From: Promethearchaeia archaeon
Lineage (GTDB): Archaea > Asgardarchaeota > Lokiarchaeia > Sigyniarchaeales > SOKP01
DNA length: 41,144 nt
Assembly: GCA_029856295.1 (NCBI GenBank)
Contig: JAHQWS010000137.1
Span: 1 to 41,144, forward strand
Reading direction: 5' to 3'
Position numbers and translations under genes: made by a program. The notes under the pieces were generated by a model. That model was given only the letters and a program-made list of their open reading frames with translations. It made no database searches and was not told where the DNA came from. Below are positions 6,125 to 24,471 of the stretch, one piece after another; the stretch's first letter is position 1, and each line of letters opens with the position of its first letter.

Positions 6125-7303
6125 TTACATCCTGTCGAAAAACAAGGCCCCATCGATAAATGAAAACGCAATACGCTTTTTCTTTATCCACTCCTCCCCG
6201 AACCTAGAATAATGCTTCCGAAACATATCATTTGATATGATAAATGCGTCTTTTCGCTTGGCATATTGCAGTATAAAATAGTCCGCTTCCGTGCCCCCAG
6301 GCGTTTCATCAAATTCATCTCTCTCTTTTAACGCCTTATATGCGTCTTGATTGTCGATTTTATGATGAAGATTTCTATCACTTAATACTTTAAACTGTGT
6401 TATTCCTAGAGAATGGAGCCTTTCGACTAACTGATAGAGAGTAGAGATCATTGGTCTGTTCTCACTATCCTTAATATCTAATGCGACATTGGCACCATCA
6501 ATTACAAAATAACACTCCTCCGCGTTATAAGGCTCATCGTCAATATAAATAATTTGATCCATACAGTTTTCATAGGCACTCGATGGTTCAATTACTTCAG
6601 TTGGAATAACTCCCTTGATCTCAATAATGCTCTCTGAGGGCACCTTAGCAAGCTCTCTGTGCCCAGAAGTAATGGTATCATTAAAAAAGCTATCTGGATA
6701 TGCTTTCAATTTTTTATAAATGTTATTTATGCGGAGTGCTAAATGATCAAGAAGCGTATCTTTTTCTTCTTGCTCTTTTTGGCTGGAACTATATGCATCT
6801 CCTAATTTCTTGGACTCTTGGGTAAGGAAAAAAGAGATAAATTTGGCAATGTCTTCAAATATCCGAATGTATGAGGCAAGCACCGTTTTTTTTAATTCTT
6901 TTGGAGTGATACTTCCCTGGGTAAACGCGCTTATCGTAGTCTTCAATGCTGTAAGTTCCCGCTTATCAAAAATGATACGCTCCAAAATGTCGTGGATATT
7001 TACTTCTGGAGCAAATTCGCCTGTCGAATCAAGGGATTCTCTATTTTGTGGTATAGCAAGATTATCTTCTGGAAGAATATTCTCTGTCTGCTCTTCATAT
7101 TCAAAGCTAGTAGGTTCTGGAGTAATCTCACTCTCTTCTAAAGCCCGAATCGCATCGTACTGTTCAAAATCATGCTCGTCAATACCCAACTCATTATTAA
7201 AAGTGTTATCCTGAGAAATAATTGTTTTCGATCGCTTGGTAGAGTTAGAATGGGAGCCACCCCAGGTAGTAAGATCCTTTTCTTTTGACATAGAAATGCT
7301 CAA
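6125..7303 (-). CDS. Protein with a C-terminal Zc3h12a/NYN-type (PIN-like) ribonuclease domain
   Basis: The C-terminal ~130 aa (FVIDGANVALD...FKVLSDRNL...EADYFILQYAKRKDAFIISNDMFRKH...WIKKKRIAFSFIDGALFFD) follows the Zc3h12a/N4BP1 pattern (VIDGSNVA...DD.FI...A......IVSND.YRD......RL..YSF....F). The N-terminal 260 aa is acidic and helical with no call. Confidence 0.7.
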   Translation of the reverse strand: MSISMSKEKDLTTWGGSHSNSTKRSKTIISQDNTFNNELGIDEHDFEQYDAIRALEESEITPEPTSFEYEEQTENILPEDNLAIPQNRESLDSTGEFAPEVNIHDILERIIFDKRELTALKTTISAFTQGSITPKELKKTVLASYIRIFEDIAKFISFFLTQESKKLGDAYSSSQKEQEEKDTLLDHLALRINNIYKKLKAYPDSFFNDTITSGHRELAKVPSESIIEIKGVIPTEVIEPSSAYENCMDQIIYIDDEPYNAEECYFVIDGANVALDIKDSENRPMISTLYQLVERLHSLGITQFKVLSDRNLHHKIDNQDAYKALKERDEFDETPGGTEADYFILQYAKRKDAFIISNDMFRKHYSRFGEEWIKKKRIAFSFIDGALFFDRM

Positions 7304-11537: not shown

Positions 11538-12386
11538 ATGACCGAAGTGAAAACCACCTTAAAGAAAAGGCTAAAAGAACAATTTAAGATTAAAAAAGAA
11601 AATTCGGGGTTCCTAAAGAAAATAATCGAGACTCTTTCGGCGCTTATCGAAGAGACTCAGTTTATAGTGACTCCGGAAGGGTTCCATATAAAAGCCATGG
11701 ACCCGAGTAAGGCATGTATGGTCTCACTTTTCATTGGAAAAGAGAATTTCGATGAGTTCGAGTGTAGTTTACCATGTAAATTAAGCTTGAACTTAGATAA
11801 TTTTGATAAAATCTTGAGGCGGAGCACCAATAATGATCATCTTATGCTTACCTATAATGAGGAGGAACAGAAGATTAAAGTTCAAATAATTCCAGAGGGG
11901 AGCACGTATTCGCGTACATTTAGTCTTGCCCTACTTGACATAGAATACGAGGAAATACCAGTAGAAAACCTTAGTCGCATCATATTCCATACGAAATTTT
12001 TCCTTGATATAGATTTTTTAATACAGGTGGTCAAAGACGCAGAAATCTACTCTGACACCTTTAGCATGAAGTCCATACAGGGGCAAGGGTTAGAGTTCTA
12101 TTCCATAGGATCGATAGGGGAGATGGGATATAAAATCTCTCCCGAAGATATTCCGAACTTAGACCTTGAAATTATCGAGGAGAGCTGCGATTCATTCTCC
12201 ATTGAATACCTCAAAAAAATTACAAAAATTCACAACATTGCCGAAAAAACAGATATTTCTCTACGCACGGATCATCCCTTAAAGATGGAAATCTCTCTCA
12301 TCGAGGGAGGTGAATTGTTATACTATCAGGCTCCAAGAGCTGAGAAAGATGAAATAAACGGCAGTGATGAAATTAATGATTTATAA
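11538..12386 (+). CDS. pcn: DNA polymerase sliding clamp (PCNA) with a basic ~25-aa N-terminal extension and an acidic C-terminal tail
   Basis: FLKKIIETLSALIEETQFIVTPEGFHIKAMDPSKACMVSLFIGKENFDEFEC matches the PCNA N-terminal domain pattern (L....ID.L..LVDE..F....DGI...AMD.S.VALV.L.L....F.EY). The C-terminal ..LYYQAPRAE matches ..LAPRIE. At 282 aa it is longer than the usual ~250. Confidence 0.9.
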   Translation: MTEVKTTLKKRLKEQFKIKKENSGFLKKIIETLSALIEETQFIVTPEGFHIKAMDPSKACMVSLFIGKENFDEFECSLPCKLSLNLDNFDKILRRSTNNDHLMLTYNEEEQKIKVQIIPEGSTYSRTFSLALLDIEYEEIPVENLSRIIFHTKFFLDIDFLIQVVKDAEIYSDTFSMKSIQGQGLEFYSIGSIGEMGYKISPEDIPNLDLEIIEESCDSFSIEYLKKITKIHNIAEKTDISLRTDHPLKMEISLIEGGELLYYQAPRAEKDEINGSDEINDL

Positions 12387-12595: not shown

Positions 12596-15500
12596 TTATT
12601 TTTTTTTATTTTTAACACCGCATCCAGGACAATATAGAGAATTTGGCTCTATTATCGTTCCACATAACTCACAAGTCCTTACTATATTGATCTCCACGTG
12701 TTCTTTTACTTTATGATAAAAATCTGAAAAAATATTATACGTATTAACAACTTTCGCTTCTAAATCTCTGTCGTGTTCATGAAAATTATTACAATAAGTT
12801 AGATAATTATGTAACTTTTCTTGTGAAAATGGAAGTTTCTGGTTTATAGAAAGATAATTACAAAACGCTTCCAAATCTTTTTTGGTGATGGGAGTAATGA
12901 CCTCATCTATGCGATATAACTTTTGATATACATTCATGAGAAACGTTTTTATGTAGAATTTTTCAATGTTTAGTGCCGATTTTAGATCTTTAGTAGTAAT
13001 ATGCTTATAAATTTGAAATAATTCATAATATAGGTCATCTAATTCTTTGGCCAAAACTTTGTTAAGATTTTCGTCTTCAAGAACACTCTCAGGTGCAATA
13101 TTCATAGTTTCGTTCTCAATATGGATGTCTCGATCAAAGTTTTGTTCTACGACCTCAACTGAAATATCCGTCATTTGTGCTTTTTTTGTCTGAAAGTAAT
13201 CATCTACGGCTTTTTGATAGTGCTCTCCAACTTGATAAGAAGTTCGCATGGTCTCTTGACCTCCCGCATTTTTCGGATGGGACTCTACTAAATATCTCTG
13301 CGTGATAAGGATAGTAAACAGATCATTTTTCAATTTCTTCAGTTCTCTCTTATCGTGCGTGGTCATTTTGGCTTTTTCATGAATCACTTTCTTCAGCTCA
13401 TCCTTAATCTGTCTCTCAGAGATCGGAAGCTTATGCACCATCTTTAGACCATTTAATAAGTTAATAATCTCAGGAATAAATTGCGAGTACTTTCCGAAAT
13501 CTTTTTCGAAAATGGTCTTTCTGGTGTGCTCTAAAATGCGCTTTTCAGTTAAATTGAGGTCATACCCCTGCTCTTTCATGAACTCGGCAATTTCATCCAT
13601 ATTCATGGGTGACACCTGCTCTATGTCATCTACCTCAAATTCTACAGGAAATGTTTGGTTCTCGTCATCTCGTTTTACTAATATTTCAGTAGGCTTCATA
13701 CTCTTGAGGTATTCAATTTGGTAGGTATCATTTCGTGACTTGCTATAATATCCGGTTCCATGAAGCTCTTGAAGGCCCATTATATTTTTCAGCACTTTTA
13801 TATCCCGATAATCGGTGGCTTGGAAGGTGATAAAGTTTTTAAACAATTTTAAGAAATGGTGGTGCAAGTAATGCACTTGATTGGCCAGTACCACCGTTCC
13901 AAACCCTTCTCGTCGCAGGGGCTCGAAAAATTTGTCGATGATCCCAAAATCCAGTTGTTTATCTAACGATTTCTCATCAAACACCAGATCTAAGTGAGGT
14001 AAGAAGAGTACTTTTTCACAAAACGCATCAAAATTTGAAATATAATGAATGATTTTCGATAAAATGACGAACATTAAAAAGTTTTTTTTCTTCAGATCAT
14101 TGGACATGGACAGATCAACAATGACGGTTTTATCATCTGAGAGAAACGTTTGAAACGTTACCGCTTGCTCTTGCCCCGTTTGGGTGCTATGTAGAAACGT
14201 TATATCATCTTCCGTGAAATCTTCAAACATAGAAATCAATTCCTCGACATGAGGATTTTTCTTCCAGGATACTTGATTCTTGAGCTCTAACGCAAGTGAT
14301 GCCAGGTCTAAGTCTTTATGTTCTTGTATAAATTTACGCAACCTGTCAACGGAATAGCGGTCTTTTTTAAATGTGAGGGCATACGAATCATACATATAGT
14401 CCAAATAGGCAGTATTTTTCTTTTCATATAGAATATCTGAATTAAGCGGGTCGATACTAAAGGCCTTGCCCATTTTAAAATGAACGATATCGTACTGGTG
14501 TTGAGTGTCCTCAAAATATTTGATTAGCCTTGACCACTCTCCGCTATAATCAAAGATAATAGAAGGGACCCCTTGCTTGACCAACTGGATTACCATCCTC
14601 ATTGCCAATAGATCTCTCTCACGGGCAGTTCCGTTGACAATTAACACATTATCCAATTGATCTCTGGTAAGTCCGGCAGGGGCTTCTTTTTGCCAAAACT
14701 CGGTATTGATGGTATGGCCAAATGCAATAAAGTTTTCTAAACTTAAAGGAGTATTAAATTCGGCGGCCAGTCTAGTATCAATTCCTTTTTTAAACACATC
14801 CTCGATTCTGATAAGATGCATTAACACTTTACCTTGAAATAAGAGGTAATGTAAATGAGTGCCCGAAAGAGTGTATAACTTGGTCTTTAAAATCTCAGAG
14901 AGGCACCCCGAAACAAGTTTCTGTGAGCTAAGCGGAGTCACATAAAACTCGTCCAGCCGGGCAGTAAACCTATCTTCCAAAAACGCGATGTAATTTTGTG
15001 AGCGATTTGCTAATTCAATGAAATCGTGTTCTGTAATTGAATTCACGTCTTCAAACGATTTGTAGGCATAGGTAGATGCAGTCAGGATAACTTGCCATAC
15101 ACCTGAACGAGTTTTTAGCCAACCCTCTCCTTCTATATCGCTGGTAACGTATTCTTTGAGCTTACTCTGAGTGTTAGGATTTAATTTGTTATATGCTATT
15201 CTATCAAAGCGATAGAAACTTAAAGGGCTGGCCATTACGGTGTAGATAAAAGGAATTTTCCTTTCAATTAGTTCCAAGTAATATTTACCGGGGTAAAAAT
15301 CGATAATCTTAGCTGCGTTCTCATTATATTGAAATCTTACTGCCGCATGGTTGATATTAAACATTTTTTCGCAAACAAGTAGCGTATTATTTATGAGAAA
15401 AAAGAGCGCATCCGAAATTCCTCTGTATCGAAATGCTTGAATTCCTTGAAAGGGCTTTACAATGTTGAACTCTTTACTCTTCAGCAGATTATAAGCGGTC

Positions 15501-16534
15501 AAATAATAGAGCGGCGCTCTCCACCACACCCAGAGCATCACAACTAGTAAGCAAAGGTCTATAAGCACTATAATCCAAAAGGAAATGTTAAATAACAACA
15601 AAAATAATGAGGTACAATAGAGAACAAATAAACAGAAACCCGTTTTCATGGCATAGGAGCTTATACTGATGTTCGGTTTTATGACCTCCATCTGTTTTGG
15701 AACGGTATAGGGGATGTCTCGTATGACAAACGACCTGAGAGCATGGATTAATTGATTTCCAGATAATAACTGAACCTTATAATGATGAAAATCACCTACA
15801 AAATCGGCGCGCATGGAATCTACAAACCGTCCAAATACATCTTGGAGCGTCGTTAATTTTCGAGCGGTAAGTATTCCCGATGCATCATAATAGGTCGCAA
15901 AATAGATGGCCGTCTGAAAGGATCGCATCGGTTCTTCATGTTCTTGGGATAAATTCTCTTCAAACCTTCTTGATGCCGTGCTAGAAATAATGGGCTGTTG
16001 ATGGATCTGGAAGGTGTAGGGCATGGCATGTTTATTGAGCACTTTAATATATTGATTTAAGGTCGCTTTCGTAGTTTCTGGGAGACCCTCGACTTTAAAG
16101 ATACTGAGAGCCACTGTTTTTAACTGCTCTTTATTGGTAATATATAATACATTTGCCGCATCATCAGTAAAAAAAAAGGTAAAATCACTGAACATATTCA
16201 CTTTACGATACTTGCTAAATGGCGTGGAAAAACCCCCTCTCAAACCAAATATCGTGTCAGAAAAGGTAACCATAAAAAGGATCACAGTGAACACTCCCAC
16301 AAGCACTCCCAACATAGGATTAGAACTGATAAGATAGAGAGCAATCATAAAAAATATGGCAACAGCGAGTACTGAAAGCCCTTTTATATTTGCATAGAGC
16401 ACATTAATATCGGTAAATGAAGGGTTATCGTCCCATATGTCTAAATATTTACTTTTACTCGGCTTTTGTTCAGTCGCTTCTTTCTTCTTGTTGGCAAACG
16501 GGTGATCCGAATAGACTTTTTTACTTCTACTCAT
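12596..16534 (-). CDS. Giant membrane-anchored HerA/VirB4/FtsK-like (DUF87-type) protein with degenerate Walker A/B, helical tail and C-terminal zinc ribbon
   Basis: TM hairpins at about aa 52-95 and 297-345, each followed by a ~200-aa soluble module. Residues 625-920 align by eye to the HerA/DUF87 core: LIVNGTARERDLL..VPSIIFDYSGEWS (versus ..G.TGSGKS....vlIfD.hGEY), VIVDLS, VLFLPHLD (versus llvlEEAH), REGFGTVVLANQVH (versus GRKyGvgl.l.sQrPs), FQATDYRD. No G....GK[ST] occurs anywhere in the 1312 aa. The C-terminus is CELCG..x11..CPGCG. Confidence 0.75.
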   Translation of the reverse strand: MSRSKKVYSDHPFANKKKEATEQKPSKSKYLDIWDDNPSFTDINVLYANIKGLSVLAVAIFFMIALYLISSNPMLGVLVGVFTVILFMVTFSDTIFGLRGGFSTPFSKYRKVNMFSDFTFFFTDDAANVLYITNKEQLKTVALSIFKVEGLPETTKATLNQYIKVLNKHAMPYTFQIHQQPIISSTASRRFEENLSQEHEEPMRSFQTAIYFATYYDASGILTARKLTTLQDVFGRFVDSMRADFVGDFHHYKVQLLSGNQLIHALRSFVIRDIPYTVPKQMEVIKPNISISSYAMKTGFCLFVLYCTSLFLLLFNISFWIIVLIDLCLLVVMLWVWWRAPLYYLTAYNLLKSKEFNIVKPFQGIQAFRYRGISDALFFLINNTLLVCEKMFNINHAAVRFQYNENAAKIIDFYPGKYYLELIERKIPFIYTVMASPLSFYRFDRIAYNKLNPNTQSKLKEYVTSDIEGEGWLKTRSGVWQVILTASTYAYKSFEDVNSITEHDFIELANRSQNYIAFLEDRFTARLDEFYVTPLSSQKLVSGCLSEILKTKLYTLSGTHLHYLLFQGKVLMHLIRIEDVFKKGIDTRLAAEFNTPLSLENFIAFGHTINTEFWQKEAPAGLTRDQLDNVLIVNGTARERDLLAMRMVIQLVKQGVPSIIFDYSGEWSRLIKYFEDTQHQYDIVHFKMGKAFSIDPLNSDILYEKKNTAYLDYMYDSYALTFKKDRYSVDRLRKFIQEHKDLDLASLALELKNQVSWKKNPHVEELISMFEDFTEDDITFLHSTQTGQEQAVTFQTFLSDDKTVIVDLSMSNDLKKKNFLMFVILSKIIHYISNFDAFCEKVLFLPHLDLVFDEKSLDKQLDFGIIDKFFEPLRREGFGTVVLANQVHYLHHHFLKLFKNFITFQATDYRDIKVLKNIMGLQELHGTGYYSKSRNDTYQIEYLKSMKPTEILVKRDDENQTFPVEFEVDDIEQVSPMNMDEIAEFMKEQGYDLNLTEKRILEHTRKTIFEKDFGKYSQFIPEIINLLNGLKMVHKLPISERQIKDELKKVIHEKAKMTTHDKRELKKLKNDLFTILITQRYLVESHPKNAGGQETMRTSYQVGEHYQKAVDDYFQTKKAQMTDISVEVVEQNFDRDIHIENETMNIAPESVLEDENLNKVLAKELDDLYYELFQIYKHITTKDLKSALNIEKFYIKTFLMNVYQKLYRIDEVITPITKKDLEAFCNYLSINQKLPFSQEKLHNYLTYCNNFHEHDRDLEAKVVNTYNIFSDFYHKVKEHVEINIVRTCELCGTIIEPNSLYCPGCGVKNKKK

Positions 16535-16536
16535 AG

Positions 16537-17406
16537 CTACACTATCCCTCCTTTTTTAAAGTATTGTCTATAGAGCATGATAAAGAAACATCCCGTGCCA
16601 AAAAATGTTAAGGAGAATATGCTTATTAAAGCAGTGAGTTTTGGATGGTATATCGTCTGAATTGCCACCGCCAGTCCCAGTACAAAAAATAGCAGGAACA
16701 GCCCAATCATCAAATATCCAAAAATATTGGGAATTGAGCGCTGATAGATAAGATTATCTTTTAGCCGTCCCCGAAGCACAATTTTTCCACCTGCATGTTG
16801 CTGCAACGCAACTTTGGCGTTTTTAAAGGTAATCATTTTTTCGAACTTCTCTTTATCATATGCCTCATTCAATTCTTTTTGCATTTGTATCTCCTGCTCT
16901 TTAAATCCGTGAATAATGACATCTTTTAGCTTCTGATCGCTTTTTTTTCTCTTTACCTGTTCTGAAATTCCTGAAAGAAACGAGTAAACCCTCATTTCAC
17001 TATTTTGAGCGATAGCTTCCAAATCTAATTTTTCAAATAAGTTTGGAATCTCTAATTTTCTAAAATCATAATATAACTTATACACTTGAGAGATGAATTC
17101 CATAGGGATATTTCCTTTATGTTTACTAAATAAGAGTTCAGTTTTTTTGATGGATTCGATTACATCCTCTTGAAATAGAATCATTTTAAAATTATGATAT
17201 AGTATAGAGTTAAGTAAGGTCATATAATGAAAAATAGCCTCATGAGCATCTTTATCTCTTGGGCGAATCCCTAATTTCACTCCAATCTCGTCTAATACGT
17301 TTCCAACCAAAACTAAACTAAGAGCCGCTAACTTTTGGTAATTGTGGGTCTGATTACATACCTTAATTAGCGTCTTTAACTTAGGATCAATCAATTCGTA
17401 GTTCAT
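16537..17406 (-). CDS. Operon protein 3: helical cytoplasmic domain plus C-terminal TM hairpin (289 aa), unknown function
   Basis: Start overlaps the upstream stop (ATGA at 17403-17406) and the ORF ends 2 nt before the 1312-aa gene. C-terminal IFGYLMIGLFLLFFVLGLAVAI and ALISIFSLTFFGTGCFFIML are two TM helices. Confidence 0.7.
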   Translation of the reverse strand: MNYELIDPKLKTLIKVCNQTHNYQKLAALSLVLVGNVLDEIGVKLGIRPRDKDAHEAIFHYMTLLNSILYHNFKMILFQEDVIESIKKTELLFSKHKGNIPMEFISQVYKLYYDFRKLEIPNLFEKLDLEAIAQNSEMRVYSFLSGISEQVKRKKSDQKLKDVIIHGFKEQEIQMQKELNEAYDKEKFEKMITFKNAKVALQQHAGGKIVLRGRLKDNLIYQRSIPNIFGYLMIGLFLLFFVLGLAVAIQTIYHPKLTALISIFSLTFFGTGCFFIMLYRQYFKKGGIV

Positions 17407-18149
17407 GAACCCGTCCTCTTTTTTATTGGTTGTGGGTGAAAGATCTCCAGCTCTTCGAGAACATCAAAAGAGTCGTCGCCGAATTTAAGTTTTAATTGCT
17501 CATTGGCAATTAATTTATCCATATCAACTGGGTCTTGTATGTCTTTCACATATTGTGCTACCGCATTTTTTGCAGAATGTTCCTGAGATTGAAAACCAGT
17601 GACCGTATAATAATAAAACAGTGCATAAGGAAACACAAAAATAAAGCCAAATATTTGAAGGCAGTATCCAGGACCTATAGAATATTGATACACCATATCC
17701 GCATCTTTATCTTTGACATGCAAAAAAGGGAAATAGAGATCATTGGGGACTAAATAAAATACGGGAAAAGCAAAAATATAAAACAACATGAGCATAAGCA
17801 GAAAAATATTAGCATAGGCATTTATCGTTAATTTTTCGAGCTCCTCGTATTGTTCCACGTCCCGAAAGATGACGGTATATGCTGAAACTGCAAGCATTAT
17901 AATATATATAATAGTCAAAGTTATCGGAATGTGAAAGGTGCTAGGCTTGAGGGTATTATTGACGGTTGAGTTCTCAGAAAACACCGTCGTCCATCCTGTA
18001 ATAGGGTTATAACTCCAATATGATTTTAAGCTTAGATGGGAATCGTACACTTGATAGATATACCACTCTAAAAATAAAGACACAAACGACAAAAGAAGCC
18101 CCAGCACATAAAGAATTCGAAACTGTTTACGAGTGTTAGCTATCATCAT
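17403..18149 (-). CDS. Operon protein 2: 4-TM membrane protein (248 aa) with an acidic C-terminal tail, unknown function
   Basis: Four long hydrophobic segments rich in aromatic residues. Begins 7 nt downstream of the stop of the 595-aa gene. Confidence 0.7.
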   Translation of the reverse strand: MMIANTRKQFRILYVLGLLLSFVSLFLEWYIYQVYDSHLSLKSYWSYNPITGWTTVFSENSTVNNTLKPSTFHIPITLTIIYIIMLAVSAYTVIFRDVEQYEELEKLTINAYANIFLLMLMLFYIFAFPVFYLVPNDLYFPFLHVKDKDADMVYQYSIGPGYCLQIFGFIFVFPYALFYYYTVTGFQSQEHSAKNAVAQYVKDIQDPVDMDKLIANEQLKLKFGDDSFDVLEELEIFHPQPIKKRTGS

Positions 18150-18156
18150 TTTTCAA

Positions 18157-19944
18157 TCAATCCTCCAAGAACGCGCTATATTTTGAGATCATTTGCCCTT
18201 TCAGTGATTCTTCTTTCGATTCCCTAGAACCTTTAGCTTCTATATCCATTTCCTCTCTTTCATACTGAGAAGCTATGGTGATATTTCTTTCTTTTCTCAA
18301 TGGAATATCTTCTTGGTCCTCGAGAGCTTTTTCACTTTCAATTTCAATGACGCAGGAGAATTCACAAGATTTCCCAAACCATTCATAAAGGGCTTGGTCA
18401 AGTTCATGGGCGCTCATGGTGTCTTTTATGCTATATACATCAACCTCATCTATCTGAACGGGTTTAAGAAAGTAGGGTGTCTGATAGTCTGCTTTGATAG
18501 TTTTTTGGGATTTTATAAAAGTATTATAGATAAACCACATAACAAACCCATAAATAACTAGTGCGGCAACTCCTAGATTGGTAAACGTCGCTAAAAGAAA
18601 GATATTTTGTAGGAGCGTAATAAATAAAAATATAATACCAAACAATAAGAAAGGAATCGAGTATTTTTGAAAATCGTTTTTCATCTTGGCAAGTGATTTG
18701 TCATATTGTATAACCGCATTTTCTTGTGAAAAGAATTCCCTGAGAGAGACCTTTTTTTCCAAGAATTTTACCAAGGCCTTTATCGCTTCACATTCAACCA
18801 CGTGTAGATTTATCTTGCGCTGATATGAAAACATAGCAGTTTTTTCAAGAAACGCGGGCTCACTTATACTCACTAAAACTGGATGTATGACTGGTTTATA
18901 TTCCTTTTGATTAGCAGCAATAAATAAGGGTGTTCCGTCTTTGGTTTTTATAATAGATAAAGTCTTTTTTGCCAGTTTTTTGCGTAATAATTGAAATAAA
19001 GTTCCTCCCATGGTTATATTTTGAAATACCTCTTTTTGAGCAGATACTAAACTCTCTTTAGATATCTCGACTGGGATGTTGGTAGGCTTGTAGATAATAT
19101 GCTCGTCAGAGATCAGCAAAATCCCTCTTAGGTGGCTTATTTTCACTGGAAAAAAGACAAATATCCCTACAGAGTTATTTACATCCAGTATTTTATAAAC
19201 CAATACATCAATATCTTTCGAAATACCTCTGAGCAGGTTTGATTGCTTGTCAAGAATGGAATATCCTAACTTCTCAAAGCGAAGTATTATCGTTTTTTTC
19301 ACTTGGATAAGCTCTTCTTTGCTCAACATCTCCCCGTTAAGTTTATTATAGCCCTCATTTTCATAGGGAATAAAAACTTCTTGAAGGTGTTCTTTTTCTG
19401 GTTTTTGAGGTGTAAGCTCGTTTTCAATAAAGGGCTCTATTTCCTCAATAGCTGTATCTGGTTGATTGATTGACGGGAAGCTTTGTATACTATCGTGGTC
19501 ACTCGGGTTTGTGAAAAGTATTCGTTCCTTATTTTTAACGGAAACGAGTTGTTCTATCTCCGCGAATTCTTGGAATTGGGCTTCTGTCTCATCTTGAAAA
19601 GGTTCTTCTAATGGTTCCTCTTCTTCTAATATCGAATAGCTGTTTAATGTCACATTATCGTCTTTAGCATCTGATTGTTTCTCAAAAACGGGCGCGAGTT
19701 GCTTTTCATAGGTTGGCTCATTTATTACAGCATCATGAGTACCGTCCCCATTATGTTTTGTAAACTCCTGTGCGTTTTCGATAATTTTTTTTGAGGTTGC
19801 AGCTCCAAACCCTTTTACTTCTGCCAATTGTTCAGGAGAAAGGGCTGCCAATTGATCAACACTAGTAATCCCGGCACTAATTAATTTATTTTTGGTAGAC
19901 TCTCCAATCCCATCTATATTGGTAAGCTCATATTCTAATTCCAT
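18157..19944 (-). CDS. Operon protein 1: N-terminal tandem helix-hairpin-helix (HhH2) DNA-binding domain, acidic linker, possible restriction-endonuclease-like fold, 2 TM helices, C-terminal domain
   Basis: LTNIDGIGESTKNKLISAGITSVDQLAALSPEQLAEVKGFGAATSKKIIENAQEF contains two GhG hairpins as in the RadA N-terminal domain or ComEA. Residues 208-270 (ILRFEKLGYSILDK..KDIDVLVYK..GIFVFFPVKIS) resemble Mrr/Hjc-type cores. The TM pair lies at about aa 429-476. Confidence 0.75.
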   Translation of the reverse strand: MELEYELTNIDGIGESTKNKLISAGITSVDQLAALSPEQLAEVKGFGAATSKKIIENAQEFTKHNGDGTHDAVINEPTYEKQLAPVFEKQSDAKDDNVTLNSYSILEEEEPLEEPFQDETEAQFQEFAEIEQLVSVKNKERILFTNPSDHDSIQSFPSINQPDTAIEEIEPFIENELTPQKPEKEHLQEVFIPYENEGYNKLNGEMLSKEELIQVKKTIILRFEKLGYSILDKQSNLLRGISKDIDVLVYKILDVNNSVGIFVFFPVKISHLRGILLISDEHIIYKPTNIPVEISKESLVSAQKEVFQNITMGGTLFQLLRKKLAKKTLSIIKTKDGTPLFIAANQKEYKPVIHPVLVSISEPAFLEKTAMFSYQRKINLHVVECEAIKALVKFLEKKVSLREFFSQENAVIQYDKSLAKMKNDFQKYSIPFLLFGIIFLFITLLQNIFLLATFTNLGVAALVIYGFVMWFIYNTFIKSQKTIKADYQTPYFLKPVQIDEVDVYSIKDTMSAHELDQALYEWFGKSCEFSCVIEIESEKALEDQEDIPLRKERNITIASQYEREEMDIEAKGSRESKEESLKGQMISKYSAFLED

Positions 19945-21695: not shown

Positions 21696-23849
21696 CTAAT
21701 TCTTTTTCTTATTATGTTTGTAAATGTTGTCTATAAAATAATAAAGCTCCTCAACCATATCGATGGTAATGAGTTTTACTTTATCACTACTCATATCGTT
21801 CCATTCGTGTAATTTTCTTTTCAACAGCCGTTTTTCTCCTTCATAGCCCTCTTTGAAATCTATGAAAATGACTATTAAAAATAAGAACTGATATAATTCT
21901 TCCAAGGAAGTAGAAACGTCCGTCAGCAACTTTTCCGTATCGTTTTGTAAGTGCTTTGCTTTATAGATTTGAATGGCAATGTTATTGAATAAGATCATAT
22001 GAGCGGGAGCATTACCCGTGTCGAAAGGGATTCCTTTCTCAGTTAGCATATTTCGTATTCCAAGATCCATAGGGAGTGATGAGTTTAGCAAAATATCATT
22101 TGGATGGTTCTCTTTGGAGTTAAGAAACGACTGGAGGCTATATTGCGCTTTCTTTTTTTCATATCCGGTTTTTTCGGGTAACGGAATGGTATCAGATCTA
22201 GTAGATACCATGGCTTCTCCTATATGATCCCTTTTTTGTGTTTTTTCATACGAACGTAATGATCCCGGGTTTTTGAGGTTTACGTTCATTCTTTTTAATT
22301 TATTTAAGGCAATATTCAGATATATCTCGTCATTGGTGTCTTTACAGTAAAGGATGATTACCTTTCCTTCTCTGTGCCGGGCAGTCCTGCCTTTTCTTTG
22401 GATTAAGCGAATTTCAGAGGCTACAATATCATAAAAAATCACCAGATCGCATTCTGCAATATCTAATCCTTCTTCGCCAACATTCGTGCTCACTAATACG
22501 TTATAATTTCCTTGTTTAAATAAGTCTAAGATCTCAATTTGCTTTTTTTGAGAGAGCCCTTTATCGTCTTTGGATTTGGTTGCTTGTCCTACAAACCTCA
22601 CAGGCATTATGGCCTCTTTAGTGCGTAATTTTTCTACGATATTTTTCACAGAATCTCGTAATTTGACAAAGACTAATATTTTCGACTCAGGGGCCTTAGA
22701 AATCTCTTGTAAAATGAGCTGTTCTAATACATTATATTTAGGATGAATCAGGTATTGCGGAGATAAATCTTCGTTTCTCTTAAGCTCGATATAAACGTCA
22801 CGTAATCGCGCCTCAGAGGCCAGCACTTTTATAGCTTTTGAGCTGTTACGTTTACGAGCGTCCTTATAGACTTTCTCTAAGTATATGAGAAGAATATCTA
22901 AGCCTTGTTGTTCAATAAGCTCGATCATGTGATATAAAATTAATGCCTGAGCGTTAATAGAAATTGCGCTATAAACTCGACTTTTATCTCCATTTAGCCC
23001 CTCAACCATGTCAACAAGCTCTTTGTTAAGCTTGAGCAAATCCTTACGAATGATTTTGTCAAAATCAGGTTCTTTCTGTAGAAATCCTGACTGGGAGAGG
23101 TAATGCAGCCTTTTTTCAATTAAACTTTTCACCGCAAAATAGCTATCTTCCATGAGCTCAGTTAAGTTCACGCCGATCTTTCCGATGTCCATAGGCTTCA
23201 AATAGGTTTTTACATCCGTGTCTTTTCTGGTTCTAATATGGATATTATTCACGGGAATATGCAAATTGTGGCATAGTTCAATGATCTTTTTCTTGGATGC
23301 GCCCGGGGAGGCAGTGAGGGCCAAAATGTTTCCATCAGGATTCTGATCTCTATACTCATCTGCAATTAACGTATACGGATAATCACCGCTTGCGTGATGG
23401 GCTTCGTCAAATATGATGAGGCATGTATTTTTTAAGGTATACTTTCTATTTACCAGATCATTTCTTAACGTTTGGGGGGTATAAAATATGATTTGCTTTA
23501 TCTCAAAGAACTCGGCACGGTCTTTCGGAGGCACTTTACCGGTTAAAATACTGAATTTGTCTTCCGGTATTTCTAAAAATTTCAGAAAGGATTTGTAATG
23601 CTGGTCGATTAACGGTCTGGTTGGAGCTAGCATGATAACTTTACTTTGGTCAGGATGTATCTGTAATGTTTTAGCTGCCACCATTGCTCCAATGACGGTC
23701 TTTCCGAGTCCTGTCGGCAATACCACTAACGAATTTTTCTTCACGCATGCGTCTGAAATATCATGTTGAAACTTTCGGTCTTCAATTCGGTCCAATGCGA
23801 GAAGGGATTGTTTCCCATTATTATTTCTAACTTCCTTAGGTTCTGACAT
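21696..23849 (-). CDS. hef: Hef/FANCM/Mph1-family SF2 helicase with a degenerate ERCC4-like C-terminal domain
   Basis: Helicase motifs VVLPTGLGKT (I), IIFDEAHHA (II), LTASPG (III), LVSTNVGEEGLDIAECDLVIFYD (V) and IQRKGRTAR (VI), plus KQIEILDLFKQGNYNVLV, all typical of Hef. The C-terminal ~135 aa aligns to the ERCC4 nuclease fold but lacks its catalytic residues. Start taken at ATG 23849 (GAGGAAG 8 nt upstream). The ORF track uses TTG at 23864. Confidence 0.9.
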   Translation of the reverse strand: MSEPKEVRNNNGKQSLLALDRIEDRKFQHDISDACVKKNSLVVLPTGLGKTVIGAMVAAKTLQIHPDQSKVIMLAPTRPLIDQHYKSFLKFLEIPEDKFSILTGKVPPKDRAEFFEIKQIIFYTPQTLRNDLVNRKYTLKNTCLIIFDEAHHASGDYPYTLIADEYRDQNPDGNILALTASPGASKKKIIELCHNLHIPVNNIHIRTRKDTDVKTYLKPMDIGKIGVNLTELMEDSYFAVKSLIEKRLHYLSQSGFLQKEPDFDKIIRKDLLKLNKELVDMVEGLNGDKSRVYSAISINAQALILYHMIELIEQQGLDILLIYLEKVYKDARKRNSSKAIKVLASEARLRDVYIELKRNEDLSPQYLIHPKYNVLEQLILQEISKAPESKILVFVKLRDSVKNIVEKLRTKEAIMPVRFVGQATKSKDDKGLSQKKQIEILDLFKQGNYNVLVSTNVGEEGLDIAECDLVIFYDIVASEIRLIQRKGRTARHREGKVIILYCKDTNDEIYLNIALNKLKRMNVNLKNPGSLRSYEKTQKRDHIGEAMVSTRSDTIPLPEKTGYEKKKAQYSLQSFLNSKENHPNDILLNSSLPMDLGIRNMLTEKGIPFDTGNAPAHMILFNNIAIQIYKAKHLQNDTEKLLTDVSTSLEELYQFLFLIVIFIDFKEGYEGEKRLLKRKLHEWNDMSSDKVKLITIDMVEELYYFIDNIYKHNKKKN

Positions 23850-24471
23850 CTTGATCTTCCTCAAAGATAATTAGTGAATGATTCAATTCGATATCGGTCA
23901 GCTTTTTATGGGTTTTCCTATACGAGAGGATCGTCTCTCCTAGTAATAAACCCATCTCGGAGGGATAAGTAAGATTATTACCATTTTCCGTAAATAGATA
24001 GGGGTAGGTAGTCTTTAATGTTTTCATGTTTTTGAGCAATTCATTATTAATAAACTTTAAATTAAAACCCTTTCCTCTATTTACGTACTTAAAAGTGTAC
24101 GTGATATCACTGAATAGCTTCGCACTGGATTGAGTCATCTGGATCTGTTTCGGAATTAAAGGGGTTGTATCATCTTTATCGGCGATAAGATAGATGGCAC
24201 CATTGACTATTTTCCTTTTTAGGCGGTGATATTTAAAGTTATTTTTAAAGAGTTTCTGAAACTTTAAAACTAACGTAAGAATTTTATTGGCATCTTGAGT
24301 AGAGAGCTTAAGATACTCCGCCAGCTTCTCATAATTTAATTTTTTATGATAATTACCTTCAAATGCTTCTAGTGCTTTTAGTACGTTATTTAGTGCAGAA
24401 AGTGTCTCTCTTCTATCCAATCGTTTAGCTTTTCTATTAACGCTCTCGTGTACATTAGCATCCGATACCAT
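23836..24471 (-). CDS. Hypothetical protein (211 aa), co-transcribed with and overlapping the hef start
   Basis: Its stop overlaps the hef start by 14 nt (29 nt with the TTG start). A TATA-like box at 24491-24507 lies just upstream of its ATG. No motif recognised. Confidence 0.6.
   Translation of the reverse strand: MVSDANVHESVNRKAKRLDRRETLSALNNVLKALEAFEGNYHKKLNYEKLAEYLKLSTQDANKILTLVLKFQKLFKNNFKYHRLKRKIVNGAIYLIADKDDTTPLIPKQIQMTQSSAKLFSDITYTFKYVNRGKGFNLKFINNELLKNMKTLKTTYPYLFTENGNNLTYPSEMGLLLGETILSYRKTHKKLTDIELNHSLIIFEEDQDVRT

Follow-up and report, generated by a model that had tools for sequence, protein, structure and literature searches.

A conserved Asgard VirB4-like protein with a remodelled nucleotide site, a probable non-catalytic scaffold encoded with membrane proteins

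What is the role of a protein that keeps the fold of a ring ATPase and lacks its catalytic motifs? The question is raised by P0001, a 1312-aa membrane-anchored VirB4-like pseudo-ATPase whose open reading frame lies on the minus strand at 12596..16534 of a 41,144-nucleotide stretch of Asgard DNA (contig JAHQWS010000137.1, hereafter the window). The genome to which the window belongs, 72% complete, has a single copy of the gene, and its 125 homologues, of about 1260 aa each, are all named 'hypothetical' with no Pfam domain in any of them. An earlier note, made from the sequence by eye, had proposed that this protein contains a HerA/VirB4-like domain in which both Walker motifs are degenerate. 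The six strings on which that proposal relied were located by script on the translation and stand where they had been placed: LIVNGTARERD (residues 631-641, 14612-14644), IIFDYSGEWS (residues 659-668, 14531-14560), VIVDLS (residues 804-809, 14108-14125), VLFLPHLD (residues 842-849, 13988-14011), REGFG (residues 875-879, 13898-13912), and ANQVH (residues 884-888, 13871-13885). The script also confirmed that G....GK[ST] is absent from all 1312 residues and that the only GK dipeptides are those of PGKY, QGKV, MGKA, and FGKY; the relaxed pattern [AG]....[AG]K[ST] is likewise absent from the whole protein.

Curated models give no hint of such a domain. P0001 has no HerA, DUF87, VirB4, or AAA_10 match at E<=1 in Pfam or NCBIfam, and PADLOC and PHROGs return nothing relevant for it. 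A PF01935 scan of its own genome retrieves four other genes and not P0001, while a PF12846 scan of the same 72% complete genome has no match anywhere. Against PDB sequences, both phmmer with P0001 and hmmsearch with the full-length family profile yield noise only. We built a profile of the RecA-like domain, residues 596-968 (13631..14749, minus strand), which span the segment 13745-14737 delimited in the earlier note, and searched it against a library of 1.8 billion proteins. The profile matches an intact DUF87 ATPase, P0376 (Pfam DUF87, 3.3e-10), with an E-value of 3.6e-8 over 313 residues and in the motif register that had been read by eye. P0376 carries AGITGSGKT, FVVEEAH, and DQQPS and aligns with P0001 motif for motif, and no intact Walker A or B occurs elsewhere in P0001.

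The predicted structure agrees with this alignment. An AF2 model of residues 420-1010 (pLDDT 79 overall, mostly >88 in the core) was submitted to Foldseek and shows a RecA-like core whose strand order and helical insertions are of the HerA/VirB4/FtsK type. It matches HerA 4d2i with an E-value of 2.4e-11 and VirB4 with an E-value of 5e-9 (4ag5, TM 0.65, rmsd 5.5). In total, 141 PDB matches reach E<=1e-3, and the best 50 listed are all HerA or VirB4 chains with a probability of 1.00; further HerA-type matches are 9x1m, 8xav, and 8zis. Since the models are multi-domain, the TM-scores given by Foldseek reach modest values of 0.36-0.44 on the query. By hhalign, the P0001 family shows a weak resemblance to an Asgard membrane DUF87 family (E 0.006 over 292 columns, probability 6%), and the family profile gives insignificant results with single DUF87 proteins of its own genome. 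In one hhalign run, the register at Walker B was off by one to five residues, with F852-D853 on the E-D pair; this register was rejected as it conflicts with both HMMER and the AF2 strand, and the HMMER register was preferred because D849 and F852 stay aligned across the intermediates.

One could still object that the resemblance to P-loop ATPases is due to chance, or is purely architectural, in a domain that is not homologous to HerA or VirB4, given that not even the family profile finds a Pfam, NCBIfam, or PDB sequence. We consider this objection effectively refuted and give it next to no credit. The match to an intact DUF87 ATPase is significant at the scale of the whole library with all motifs in register, two independent AF2 models match HerA/VirB4 and VirB4, respectively, each with a probability of 1.00, and intermediate Asgard clades keep the Walker B acids. 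The by-eye alignment was right where curated models miss the homology and routine annotation is blind.

The N-terminal half of the protein narrows down the type of ATPase to which P0001 is related. In an AF2 model of residues 1-640 (pLDDT 84, pTM 0.82), a first TM hairpin at residues ~45-90 (16265..16402, minus strand; helices 45-70 and 73-90, hydrophobicity peaks 53-71 and 74-92) is followed by an alpha/beta module at residues ~109-267 (15734..16210, minus strand), a second TM hairpin at residues ~291-337 (15524..15664, minus strand; helices 291-314 and 319-337, hydrophobicity peak 317-335), and a second alpha/beta module at residues ~356-549 (14888..15469, minus strand) which resembles the N-terminal domain of VirB4 in Foldseek. 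Only nine Foldseek matches of this model reach E<=1e-3, and every one is TrwK/VirB4 of R388 (7o42, 7o43, 8rtb, 8rtd, and 7o41 at E<=1e-7), with E-values of 2e-9 to 2e-7, a probability of 1.00, and ~500 aligned columns, inside which the first module also falls; the next match has an E-value of 0.15. The HerA/VirB4-like label of the earlier note thus stands for the C-terminal domain and is refined by the N-terminal 640 residues, which match TrwK/VirB4 alone. Judged by these models, the VirB4-like character extends over the entire protein, also its N-terminal domain, and a generic HerA-like label is too broad. In type IV secretion systems (T4SS), the TM hairpin is supplied by VirB3, which some systems encode as a fusion with VirB4; the first hairpin of P0001 would occupy the position of such a fused VirB3-type anchor and could replace VirB3. 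At the other end, a C-terminal extension of ~340 residues terminates in a zinc ribbon (CxxC...CxxC, 12617..12682, minus strand) supported by weak Pfam zinc-ribbon matches. This ribbon is found in only 2 of 103 full-length homologues, P0001 itself and P0007, and is a lineage-specific appendage. A winged helix was also considered for this extension and rejected: Pfam wHTH matches occur in distant relatives of ~530-850 aa, and since the alignment to them ends at residue ~954, we do not claim a wHTH for P0001.

With the register fixed, the nucleotide site can be read column by column. At Walker A, the remnant N634-G-T-A-R-E-R640-D641 (14612..14635, minus strand) follows a family consensus N-G-[T]-x-x-x-R-[E/D], with N in 73, G in 80, R in 75, and E/D in 72 of 81 sequences. 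The HMM alignment to AGITGSGKT of P0376 places G635 on the first Walker glycine, R640 on the lysine, and D641 on the serine/threonine, with one residue deleted, so that G-x4-G-K-[S/T] has become G-x4-R-[E/D] through loss of one glycine and replacement of the lysine by arginine and of the hydroxyl residue by an acid. In the AF2 model, a helix begins at residue 637 and the P-loop is shortened to a three-residue loop. At Walker B, the remnant V-L-F-L-P846-H847-L-D849 (13988..14011, minus strand), of which residues 842-846 form a predicted strand, fits the family pattern hhhh-P-[H/N]-h-D: P846 is found in 77/77 and D849 in 76/77 sequences, with H or N at position 847. In the HMM alignment with P0376 (FVVEEAH) and P0368 (VLIDDAD), P846 and H847 sit at both acidic positions. 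Further downstream, REGFG...ANQVH (13871..13912, minus strand) corresponds to the (G)RKyG...sQRPs region of HerA-type ATPases and aligns to DYGWG...DQQPS of P0376, with G879 in 77/77, Q886 in 72/77, and H891 in 77/77 sequences. Both Walker motifs are therefore non-canonical across the family, as the earlier note had proposed for P0001 itself.

The relatives share this state. GK[ST] is found at the Walker A site in none of 81 species-level sequences, and among the 106 cluster representatives covering the site, K-[ST] occurs in one (P0376) and arginine in 79. G635, R640, P846, and D849 lie at about the 87th-94th percentile of column conservation, and loop residues 637-639 at the 6th-19th, that is, a hypervariable interior between near-invariant flanks. 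For the C-terminal domain compared with that of its closest relative, dN is 0.114 and dS ~2.05 (dN/dS ~0.06), values that indicate strong purifying selection. The motifs had been described as eroded; the canonical residues are indeed lost, yet simple erosion does not describe a site in which another set, G635, R640, E/D641, P846, and D849, is conserved instead. From this remodelling we infer that P0001 is unable to bind or hydrolyse ATP, and the fixation of the replacement residues together with purifying selection suggests that the fold now serves a function other than ATP hydrolysis.

The same conserved residues could be taken to mean that the site is non-canonical and not dead, G-x4-R-[E/D] and D849 binding a nucleotide, another phosphorylated ligand, or a metal in a regulatory switch or a slow enzyme. 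The replacements are chemically suggestive as well as highly conserved, since an arginine at the lysine position, a carboxylate in place of the Mg-ligand hydroxyl, and D849 could form a phosphate or metal site, and many members have a loop with abundant Ser, Asn, and Thr. We nevertheless find such activity unlikely: the loop is shorter by one residue and has lost both conserved glycines that precede the lysine position, residues 637-639 are among the least conserved columns and tolerate Pro, Tyr, and Phe, AF2 predicts a three-residue turn and not a P-loop, and both Walker B acids are replaced, one of them by an invariant proline.

If the fold does not serve ATP hydrolysis, its gene neighbours may indicate what it serves. 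P0001 belongs to a four-gene operon that is retained in 44 of 54 informative loci. Gene 1 (595 aa, 18157..19944, minus strand) combines an N-terminal HhH2 DNA-binding module (Pfam HHH_5, 4.6e-14, residues 6-59) with an acidic linker and a TM hairpin (TM peaks 433-466). Gene 2 (17403..18149, minus strand) encodes a 248-aa polytopic membrane protein, as judged by its translation and hydrophobicity, and there is a 4-nt overlap between its stop and the start of gene 3. By the same approach, the product of gene 3 (289 aa, 16537..17406, minus strand) is helical in its N-terminal part and carries a C-terminal TM hairpin. Orthologues of gene 1 and of gene 2 are each present in 52/80 loci, and that of gene 3 adjoins the VirB4-like gene in 56/80. 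Genes 2 and 3 have no family match in Pfam, and gene 1 has the HhH alone; the profiles of genes 2 and 3 retrieve no PDB sequence, and no similarity to VirB6, VirB2, VirB8, or CedA is detectable in that search. The statement that no other P-loop NTPase is encoded in the operon also holds, as there is no Walker A in any of the three upstream proteins; the single 'GKS' of P0004 lies outside any Walker context.

A fifth component is displaced in the window, ~5 kb from the operon, and lies directly downstream in most relatives. In this 392-aa protein (6125..7303, minus strand), residues ~100-200 form a helical domain of ~100 residues, and a nuclease domain of the NYN/Zc3h12a type is located C-terminally (Pfam RNase_Zc3h12a, 1.1e-13). 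The helical domain is homologous to a small ORF that lies 3-17 nt after the VirB4-like gene, or overlaps it, in 49/80 loci. In most loci this small partner has no NYN domain; the domain is fused to it in three (L011, L058, L059), is fused to the VirB4-like protein itself in P0082, and lies inside gene 1 in L022. No conserved neighbourhood extends past the five genes, and the PCNA, Hef, and exported toroid protein genes of the window are not syntenic in relatives. DNA-repair genes (Hel308-like, RadA, PNK3P) are scattered as neighbours in some relatives, an anecdotal observation.

A linked nuclease beside a HerA-like fold recalls anti-virus defence modules such as Sir2-HerA and DUF4297-HerA, in which case the NYN nuclease would be the effector and P0001 its platform. 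Many defence HerA complexes are among the top Foldseek matches, and the nuclease domain is recurrently linked or fused. This reading seems to us highly improbable, however, as the N-terminal domain matches VirB4 only and not defence HerAs, the small partner lacks the NYN domain in most loci, and PADLOC and PHROG searches of the five window proteins give no match apart from a trivial HhH. Moreover, the gene is syntenic, is usually single-copy, and occurs in 52 of the 68 genomes sampled from the GTDB family of the window, unlike patchy defence islands, and, to our knowledge, the known HerA defence systems depend on an active ATPase.

We consider it probable that P0001, a full-length protein of the VirB4 branch of the FtsK-HerA superfamily, is a non-catalytic scaffold of a membrane complex that handles nucleic acids. 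In such a complex, P0001 would form the structural core, probably oligomeric by analogy with VirB4 and HerA, and its partners would be the three co-operonic membrane proteins, one with a cytoplasmic HhH2 DNA-binding head, and the small NYN-linked protein. The gene set of HhH2, NYN-linked, and membrane proteins points to a role in DNA or RNA handling on the cytoplasmic side of the membrane. If energy is needed, an unlinked ATPase would supply it, much as an intact DUF87 ATPase is encoded next door in a paralogous clade.

In this paralogous clade (clade B), an intact DUF87 ATPase of 600-664 aa (GLTGxGKT, hhhDE) is encoded directly downstream of the dead paralogue in ten loci. Its hhalign comparison with the dead domain is insignificant, and the partner ATPase is therefore not a close paralogue of that domain. 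These loci lend indirect support to a variant of the scaffold reading, not its opposite, in which a live HerA/DUF87-type ATPase from another locus of the genome would pair with the dead protein in a mixed assembly, its live subunits giving the energy and P0001 being non-catalytic; the earlier note had already raised a partner as an alternative. The own genome of P0001 encodes four bona fide DUF87 ATPases at other sites, including the membrane-anchored C84, which is at least 70% identical across Asgard lineages. On the other hand, no orthologue of the clade-B partner is found in the window or in the 72% complete genome, and the 44 loci that retain the HhH-type operon include none with a linked ATPase gene. 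Since candidate partner ATPases are ubiquitous, their co-occurrence with P0001 is uninformative, and we regard a mixed assembly as possible though rather doubtful.

VirB4 is the single component common to all conjugation and type IV secretion machines, where it is regarded as the obligatory motor. Like VirB4/TrwK/TraC (R388 TrwK; Thermoanaerobacter VirB4, 4ag5), P0001 joins a VirB4-type N-terminal domain to a RecA-like C-terminal domain of the FtsK-HerA superfamily (ASCE P-loop fold), is membrane-associated via a short TM hairpin, and is encoded with several small membrane proteins. It differs from them by the lack of Walker A and B, two integral TM hairpins, the ~340-residue C-terminal extension, the absence of any Pfam VirB4, AAA_10, or DUF87 match, and a chromosomal gene that is lineage-wide and not in a mobile element. 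Its operon partners are membrane proteins of a size suited to T4SS parts, and no recognisable VirB2, VirB6, VirB8, VirB10, VirD4, or relaxase gene was found. The hexameric HerA translocases (HerA-NurA, Sir2-HerA, DUF4297-HerA, TdpAB) provide the best structural matches of the C-terminal domain and share its motif order, hhhhG..., hhhFD.xGE[WY], hhhDLS, Walker B, GxG...Q; P0001 is distinguished from them by its membrane embedding, its VirB4-like N-terminus, and its lack of a match to the Pfam DUF87 model or of catalytic motifs. No NurA-like gene was seen among the Pfam matches of the neighbouring genes, and no effector partner of a known type is recognised.

Non-catalytic domains of the FtsK-HerA superfamily have precedents. 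The degenerate D2-D3 ATPase domains of EccC/EssC, the membrane-anchored FtsK-like motors of T7SS, illustrate that P-loop-fold domains without catalysis serve in regulation or assembly; EccC/EssC proteins still carry one or more active domains within the chain, whereas P0001 has none. In archaea, the Ced and Ted systems descend from VirB4 machines, and their VirB4 is active. CedB and TedB are chromosomal VirB4/HerA-like proteins of these DNA-import systems, which are domesticated T4SS, and, like P0001, they are encoded with small two-TM and polytopic membrane proteins (PMC9905601), CedA/TedA being VirB6-like and CedA1/TedC a VirB2-like pilin. Compared by description, P0001 departs from Ced/Ted in its dead site and in its HhH2 membrane and NYN-linked partners, which are not components of those systems. 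A further precedent is RvhB4-II of the Rickettsiales rvh T4SS, a divergent and strictly conserved VirB4 paralogue that 'lack[s] conserved ATPase active sites' and is thought to join the machine without supplying energy (PMC4676284). It resembles P0001 in VirB4-like size, lineage-wide conservation, and loss of the catalytic sites, an analogy and not shared descent, as RvhB4-II is bacterial and unrelated in sequence. Its T4SS is complete and also contains an active RvhB4-I (PMC4676284), a coexistence that favours a mixed assembly; the surroundings of P0001 are not a recognisable T4SS, and no active VirB4 paralogue is detectable in its 72% complete genome. Our literature search retrieved no paper on an Asgard VirB4-like pseudo-ATPase.

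The loss of Walker A is shared by Asgard clades further removed from the P0001 family, in some of which the Walker B acids persist, and it predates that family. Inactivation of the site probably preceded the diversification of this Asgard (Lokiarchaeon-like) family. No T4SS-like genes were recognised around the tier-2 and tier-3 relatives in other Asgard families. A bolder proposal, speculative and on balance improbable, is that one Asgard family domesticated a conjugation-type VirB4 inner-membrane core into a chromosomal five-component apparatus made of the dead VirB4 scaffold, the DNA-binding HhH2 membrane protein, the two smaller membrane proteins of the operon, and an adaptor linked to the NYN nuclease. 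Such an apparatus might move or process DNA or RNA at the membrane without a motor of its own, by means of an unlinked ATPase, the machinery of the substrate, or the membrane potential. The closest prokaryotic relatives of eukaryotes would then possess a hitherto unrecognised system to exchange or tether nucleic acids.

P0001 is a full-length VirB4-like protein kept under strong purifying selection across an Asgard lineage after its nucleotide site was rebuilt, in a family that no curated model of Pfam, NCBIfam, PADLOC, or PHROGs recognises. It offers a clean natural example of a ring-ATPase fold re-used after catalysis was lost, for which the paralogous clade with its live ATPase provides a side-by-side comparison. 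Even if P0001 were merely a structural membrane protein, these results would give an annotation to ~170 orphan protein clusters. The family also provides a testable case of possible nucleic-acid handling at the membrane in organisms whose cell biology matters particularly to eukaryogenesis, and of which cultured representatives exist. A distant homologue, UYP48509.1, is present in Lokiarchaeum ossiferum.

P0001, the product of gene 4 (12596-16534, minus strand), is read from a 1312-codon ORF, the last of a tight four-gene cluster that also comprises gene 1 (18157-19944), gene 2 (17403-18149) and gene 3 (16537-17406), all on the minus strand. A scripted search recovered every motif string listed in the earlier note at its claimed position, among them LIVNGTARERD (14612-14644) and VLFLPHLD (13988-14011). 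Over the whole protein, neither G....GK[ST] nor the relaxed [AG]....[AG]K[ST] was found, the four GK dipeptides being PGKY, QGKV, MGKA and FGKY, and no Walker A is present in any of the three upstream operon proteins. On P0001, Pfam and NCBIfam returned nothing beyond weak C-terminal zinc-ribbon matches, PDB sequence searches with the protein or its family profile as query gave noise, and the PF01935 (DUF87) profile run over the whole 3.24-Mb assembly matched four other genes, P0001 not being among them; its kinship with HerA/VirB4 is one that routine annotation would miss. The zinc ribbon itself (CxxC...CxxC, 12617-12682, minus strand) occurs in 2 of 103 full-length homologues, namely P0001 and a 78%-identical relative.

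With a word-indexed search we collected 125 homologues (about 1260 aa, 37-78% identity); every one is annotated as 'hypothetical', carries no Pfam domain and comes from a MAG labelled Promethearchaeota or Hermod-, Hod- or Thorarchaeota. In species-representative genomes, scanning detected 80 loci with a family member. We built a domain profile (A2) of residues 596-968 from 76 sequences of the locus scan and searched it against 1.84 billion cluster representatives, obtaining 173 matches at E<=1e-3. The profile matched P0376 (710 aa) at E 3.6e-8, a bona fide DUF87 ATPase (Pfam 3.3e-10) with the motifs AGITGSGKT, AIVFDWKGDY, FVIYDLS, FVVEEAH and DQQPS. In the HMMER alignment these motifs fall on NGTARERD, IIFDYSGEW, VIVDLS, VLFLPHLD and ANQVH of P0001, the register that had been proposed by eye. 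Residues 420-1010 were modelled with AlphaFold2 from an alignment of 63 sequences (pLDDT 79, core blocks 88-97), and a Foldseek comparison of the model with the PDB produced 141 matches at E<=1e-3, the best being S. solfataricus HerA (4d2i, E 2.4e-11), with HerA-NurA, Sir2-HerA, DUF4297-HerA, TdpAB and Thermoanaerobacter VirB4 (4ag5, TM 0.65 on the target, rmsd 5.5) also at the top. Finally, a profile-profile comparison (hhalign) with the aligned membrane-anchored DUF87 family of Asgard archaea produced a weak but concordant match (E 0.006, 292 columns), in which Walker A, the FD..GE[WY] and DLS strands and the GxG motif were in register. Three independent lines (sequence, predicted structure and profile-profile comparison) thus show that the C-terminal domain of P0001 is of the HerA/VirB4 type.

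The nucleotide site of this domain has been replaced by other conserved residues. Among 81 species-level sequences, the Walker A columns read N634 (73/81), G635 (80/81), four variable positions, R640 (75/81) and Glu or Asp at 641 (72/81). Compared with the intact P0376, G635 corresponds to the first Walker glycine, one loop residue is deleted, R640 stands in place of the lysine, and the acid at 641 in place of the Mg-ligand Ser/Thr. At Walker B, K841 and four hydrophobic residues precede P846 (77/77), which is followed by His or Asn at 847, one more hydrophobic residue and D849 (76/77), so that P846 and H847 occupy both acid positions of FVV-E-E-AH in P0376 and D849 the position of the HerA His. 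This register is supported by an AlphaFold2 strand at 842-846; hhalign moves it locally by one to five residues, and an acidic pair appears in no register. G635, R640, P846, D849, K841 and F852 lie at about the 87th-94th percentile of column conservation. Loop positions 637-639 lie at the 6th-19th percentile and tolerate Pro, Tyr and Phe, which is the opposite of a phosphate-binding loop, and the AlphaFold2 model shows three residues only (NGT) from strand to helix at the Walker A site. In comparison with the 78%-identical relative, the domain gave a dN of 0.114 and a dS of about 2.05, showing that it is under strong purifying selection; the site was therefore rebuilt and then fixed, and is not decaying. 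The earlier note, which described a fold with eroded motifs, was right about the loss of catalytic Walker A and B, while the 81 sequences and their column statistics replace decay by fixed, conserved substitutions. We infer that P0001 neither binds nor hydrolyses ATP. The deletion of a glycine, the hypervariability of the loop and the invariant Walker B proline weigh against the alternative of a non-canonical active site.

The family proper was defined by scores above 300 bits in the representative search, and further Asgard clades scored 50-137 bits. The latter include relatives of about 1250 aa, such as UYP48509.1 of the cultured Lokiarchaeum ossiferum, and a clade of about 800-850 aa from Helarchaeota- and Lokiarchaeota-labelled genomes (P0332, P0337, P0346, P0351, P0365, P0368 and P0383), in which P0368, like the shorter relative P0327, carries a C-terminal winged helix (Pfam HTH_34). 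The absence of GK[ST] extends to all these 50-137-bit clades; the 800-850-aa proteins typically read GGTxxxR[F/H], and several of them retain a Walker B of the form hhhhD[D/E]A[D] (DD/DE/ED). At the Walker A site, K-[ST] is found in P0376 only and Arg in 79 of the 106 representatives covering it; at Walker B, two acids are kept in nine of the 103 covering representatives and Pro is found in 79. Judged from the distribution among clades rather than from a rooted tree, the loss of Walker B, in the lineage to which the window's family belongs, likely followed that of Walker A. The 800-850-aa clade looks intermediate in evolution, with live DUF87 ATPases on one side and the fully remodelled family on the other.

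In the AlphaFold2 model of residues 1-640 (pLDDT 84, pTM 0.82), a unit made up of a TM hairpin and, after it, an alpha/beta domain occurs twice, the first with TM 45-90 and domain 109-267, the second with TM 291-337 and domain 356-549. Foldseek returned nine matches at E<=1e-3, all of them TrwK/VirB4 chains of the R388 type IV secretion system (7o42, 7o43, 8rtb, 8rtd and 7o41; about 500 aligned columns), the tenth match dropping to E 0.15. Because of these matches, we describe P0001 as a two-domain VirB4 plan anchored by integral hairpins. The first TM hairpin may stand in for VirB3. The N-terminus is basic and the helices are even in number, which suggests that all soluble domains are cytoplasmic. 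Among the nearest known proteins are VirB4 proper and its conserved Rickettsiales paralogue RvhB4-II, which 'lack[s] conserved ATPase active sites' (PMC4676284). On catalytic grounds P0001 qualifies neither as a VirB4 nor as a HerA and it matches no curated model, and we therefore class its family as VirB4-like pseudo-ATPases of Asgard archaea, of which full-text literature searches returned no description.

Genes 1-3 accompany gene 4 in 44 of the 54 loci having enough upstream DNA, and the operon arrangement is identical in two further contigs with independently called genes. Gene 1 encodes an HhH2 module (HHH_5, 4.6e-14) and a TM hairpin; genes 2 and 3 both encode membrane proteins, with no relatives detectable among solved structures. 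The gene 1 product lacks a signal peptide and its TM segments are even in number, so the HhH2 head is probably cytoplasmic, which argues against a ComEA-like extracellular receptor. On a Hermodarchaeota-labelled contig, a PNK3P-type gene (PNK3P / AAA_33 / HAD, L008:7357-8307) lies between the HhH2 gene and gene 2.

When all window ORFs were scanned against the loci, a 392-aa protein encoded at 6125-7303 (minus strand), with a C-terminal NYN/Zc3h12a nuclease domain (Pfam 1.1e-13), had homologues in 35 loci at a stringent cut-off and in 49 of 80 at E<=1e-6. These homologues are a small ORF (110-300 aa) starting 3-17 nt past the end of gene 4 or overlapping it, and what they share with the 392-aa protein is the helical domain at its residues ~100-200. 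Because of this homology, we regard the 6125-7303 gene as a displaced fifth member of the system, about 5 kb away in the window with PCNA and an exported toroid-repeat protein in between. The NYN domain is limited to some lineages; in L011, L058 and L059 it is joined to the small ORF. It is also fused to the C-terminus of the VirB4-like protein P0082 (Pfam 1.5e-15, residues 891-1020) and inserted in the HhH2 gene of a Hermodarchaeota-labelled locus (L022:2789-5134), two cases that are domain-fusion evidence for a functional link. The five-gene association, with its DNA-binding and nuclease modules, is shown to be conserved. P0001 would be the structural core of a membrane complex, and this complex would handle nucleic acid on the cytoplasmic side. 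Replication and repair genes lie nearby, namely PCNA (11538-12386, plus strand) and a Hef-like helicase (21696-23864, minus strand) in the window, and Hel308-like helicases (L007:1782-4406, L093:1051-3210) and RadA (L094:2419-3432) near other family members; they are not syntenic across loci and therefore may be coincidental.

The family was found in 52 of the 68 sampled genomes of the window's GTDB family; the sister GTDB family gave weak matches only (2/7 genomes), and elsewhere in the phylum the 225 other genomes sampled yielded a single strong match (G241) together with three that were weak and partial. The own genome, 72% complete, has a single copy. A role in defence is unlikely given this distribution like that of a core gene, the lack of PADLOC matches and the VirB4-specific N-terminal domain. 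In genomes with several paralogues, some extra copies contain in-frame stops (G195:C4:91086-92206, G171:C23:230433-231554; 3 TGA and 3 TAA in one, 1 TAA in another), which suggests decaying duplicates or sequencing errors.

A core-region tree sets apart a clade without the HhH operon (L041, L048, L049, L051, L062, L068, L069, L074, L077, L078, L079 and L083). In ten loci, six of which belong to this clade, a gene for a DUF87-type ATPase of about 600-664 aa lies directly downstream of the dead gene (L040:12911-14704, L062:6607-8676, L068, L069:10746-12680, L074, L075:11895-13811, L078:10535-12526, L079:6545-8503, L083:5094-6608 and L088:5517-7565). GLTGxGKT and hhhhDE are intact in this ATPase, which also carries FRSRG (Pfam DUF87 2.9e-8; best PADLOC match 'mad8', 1.4e-9), and the dead paralogues beside it show the same remodelled motifs as the window's family. 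The arrangement looks like a dead-plus-live gene pair and is the best available support for such proteins working beside a live ATPase. No orthologue of the downstream ATPase was found in the 72%-complete own genome, and in no locus does the HhH-type operon have a linked ATPase gene. The own genome does encode intact DUF87 ATPases, one of them on C205. Another, on contig C84 (L004:1111-3528), is a membrane-anchored protein of the DUF87/FtsK type (805 aa) that retains its motifs (GATGTGKS, VVEDAQ) and to our knowledge is uncharacterised. It is unusually conserved, with MAGs labelled as Loki-, Hod-, Hermod-, Thor- and Heimdallarchaeota sharing at least 70% identity in the core (550 matches, E<=1e-5).
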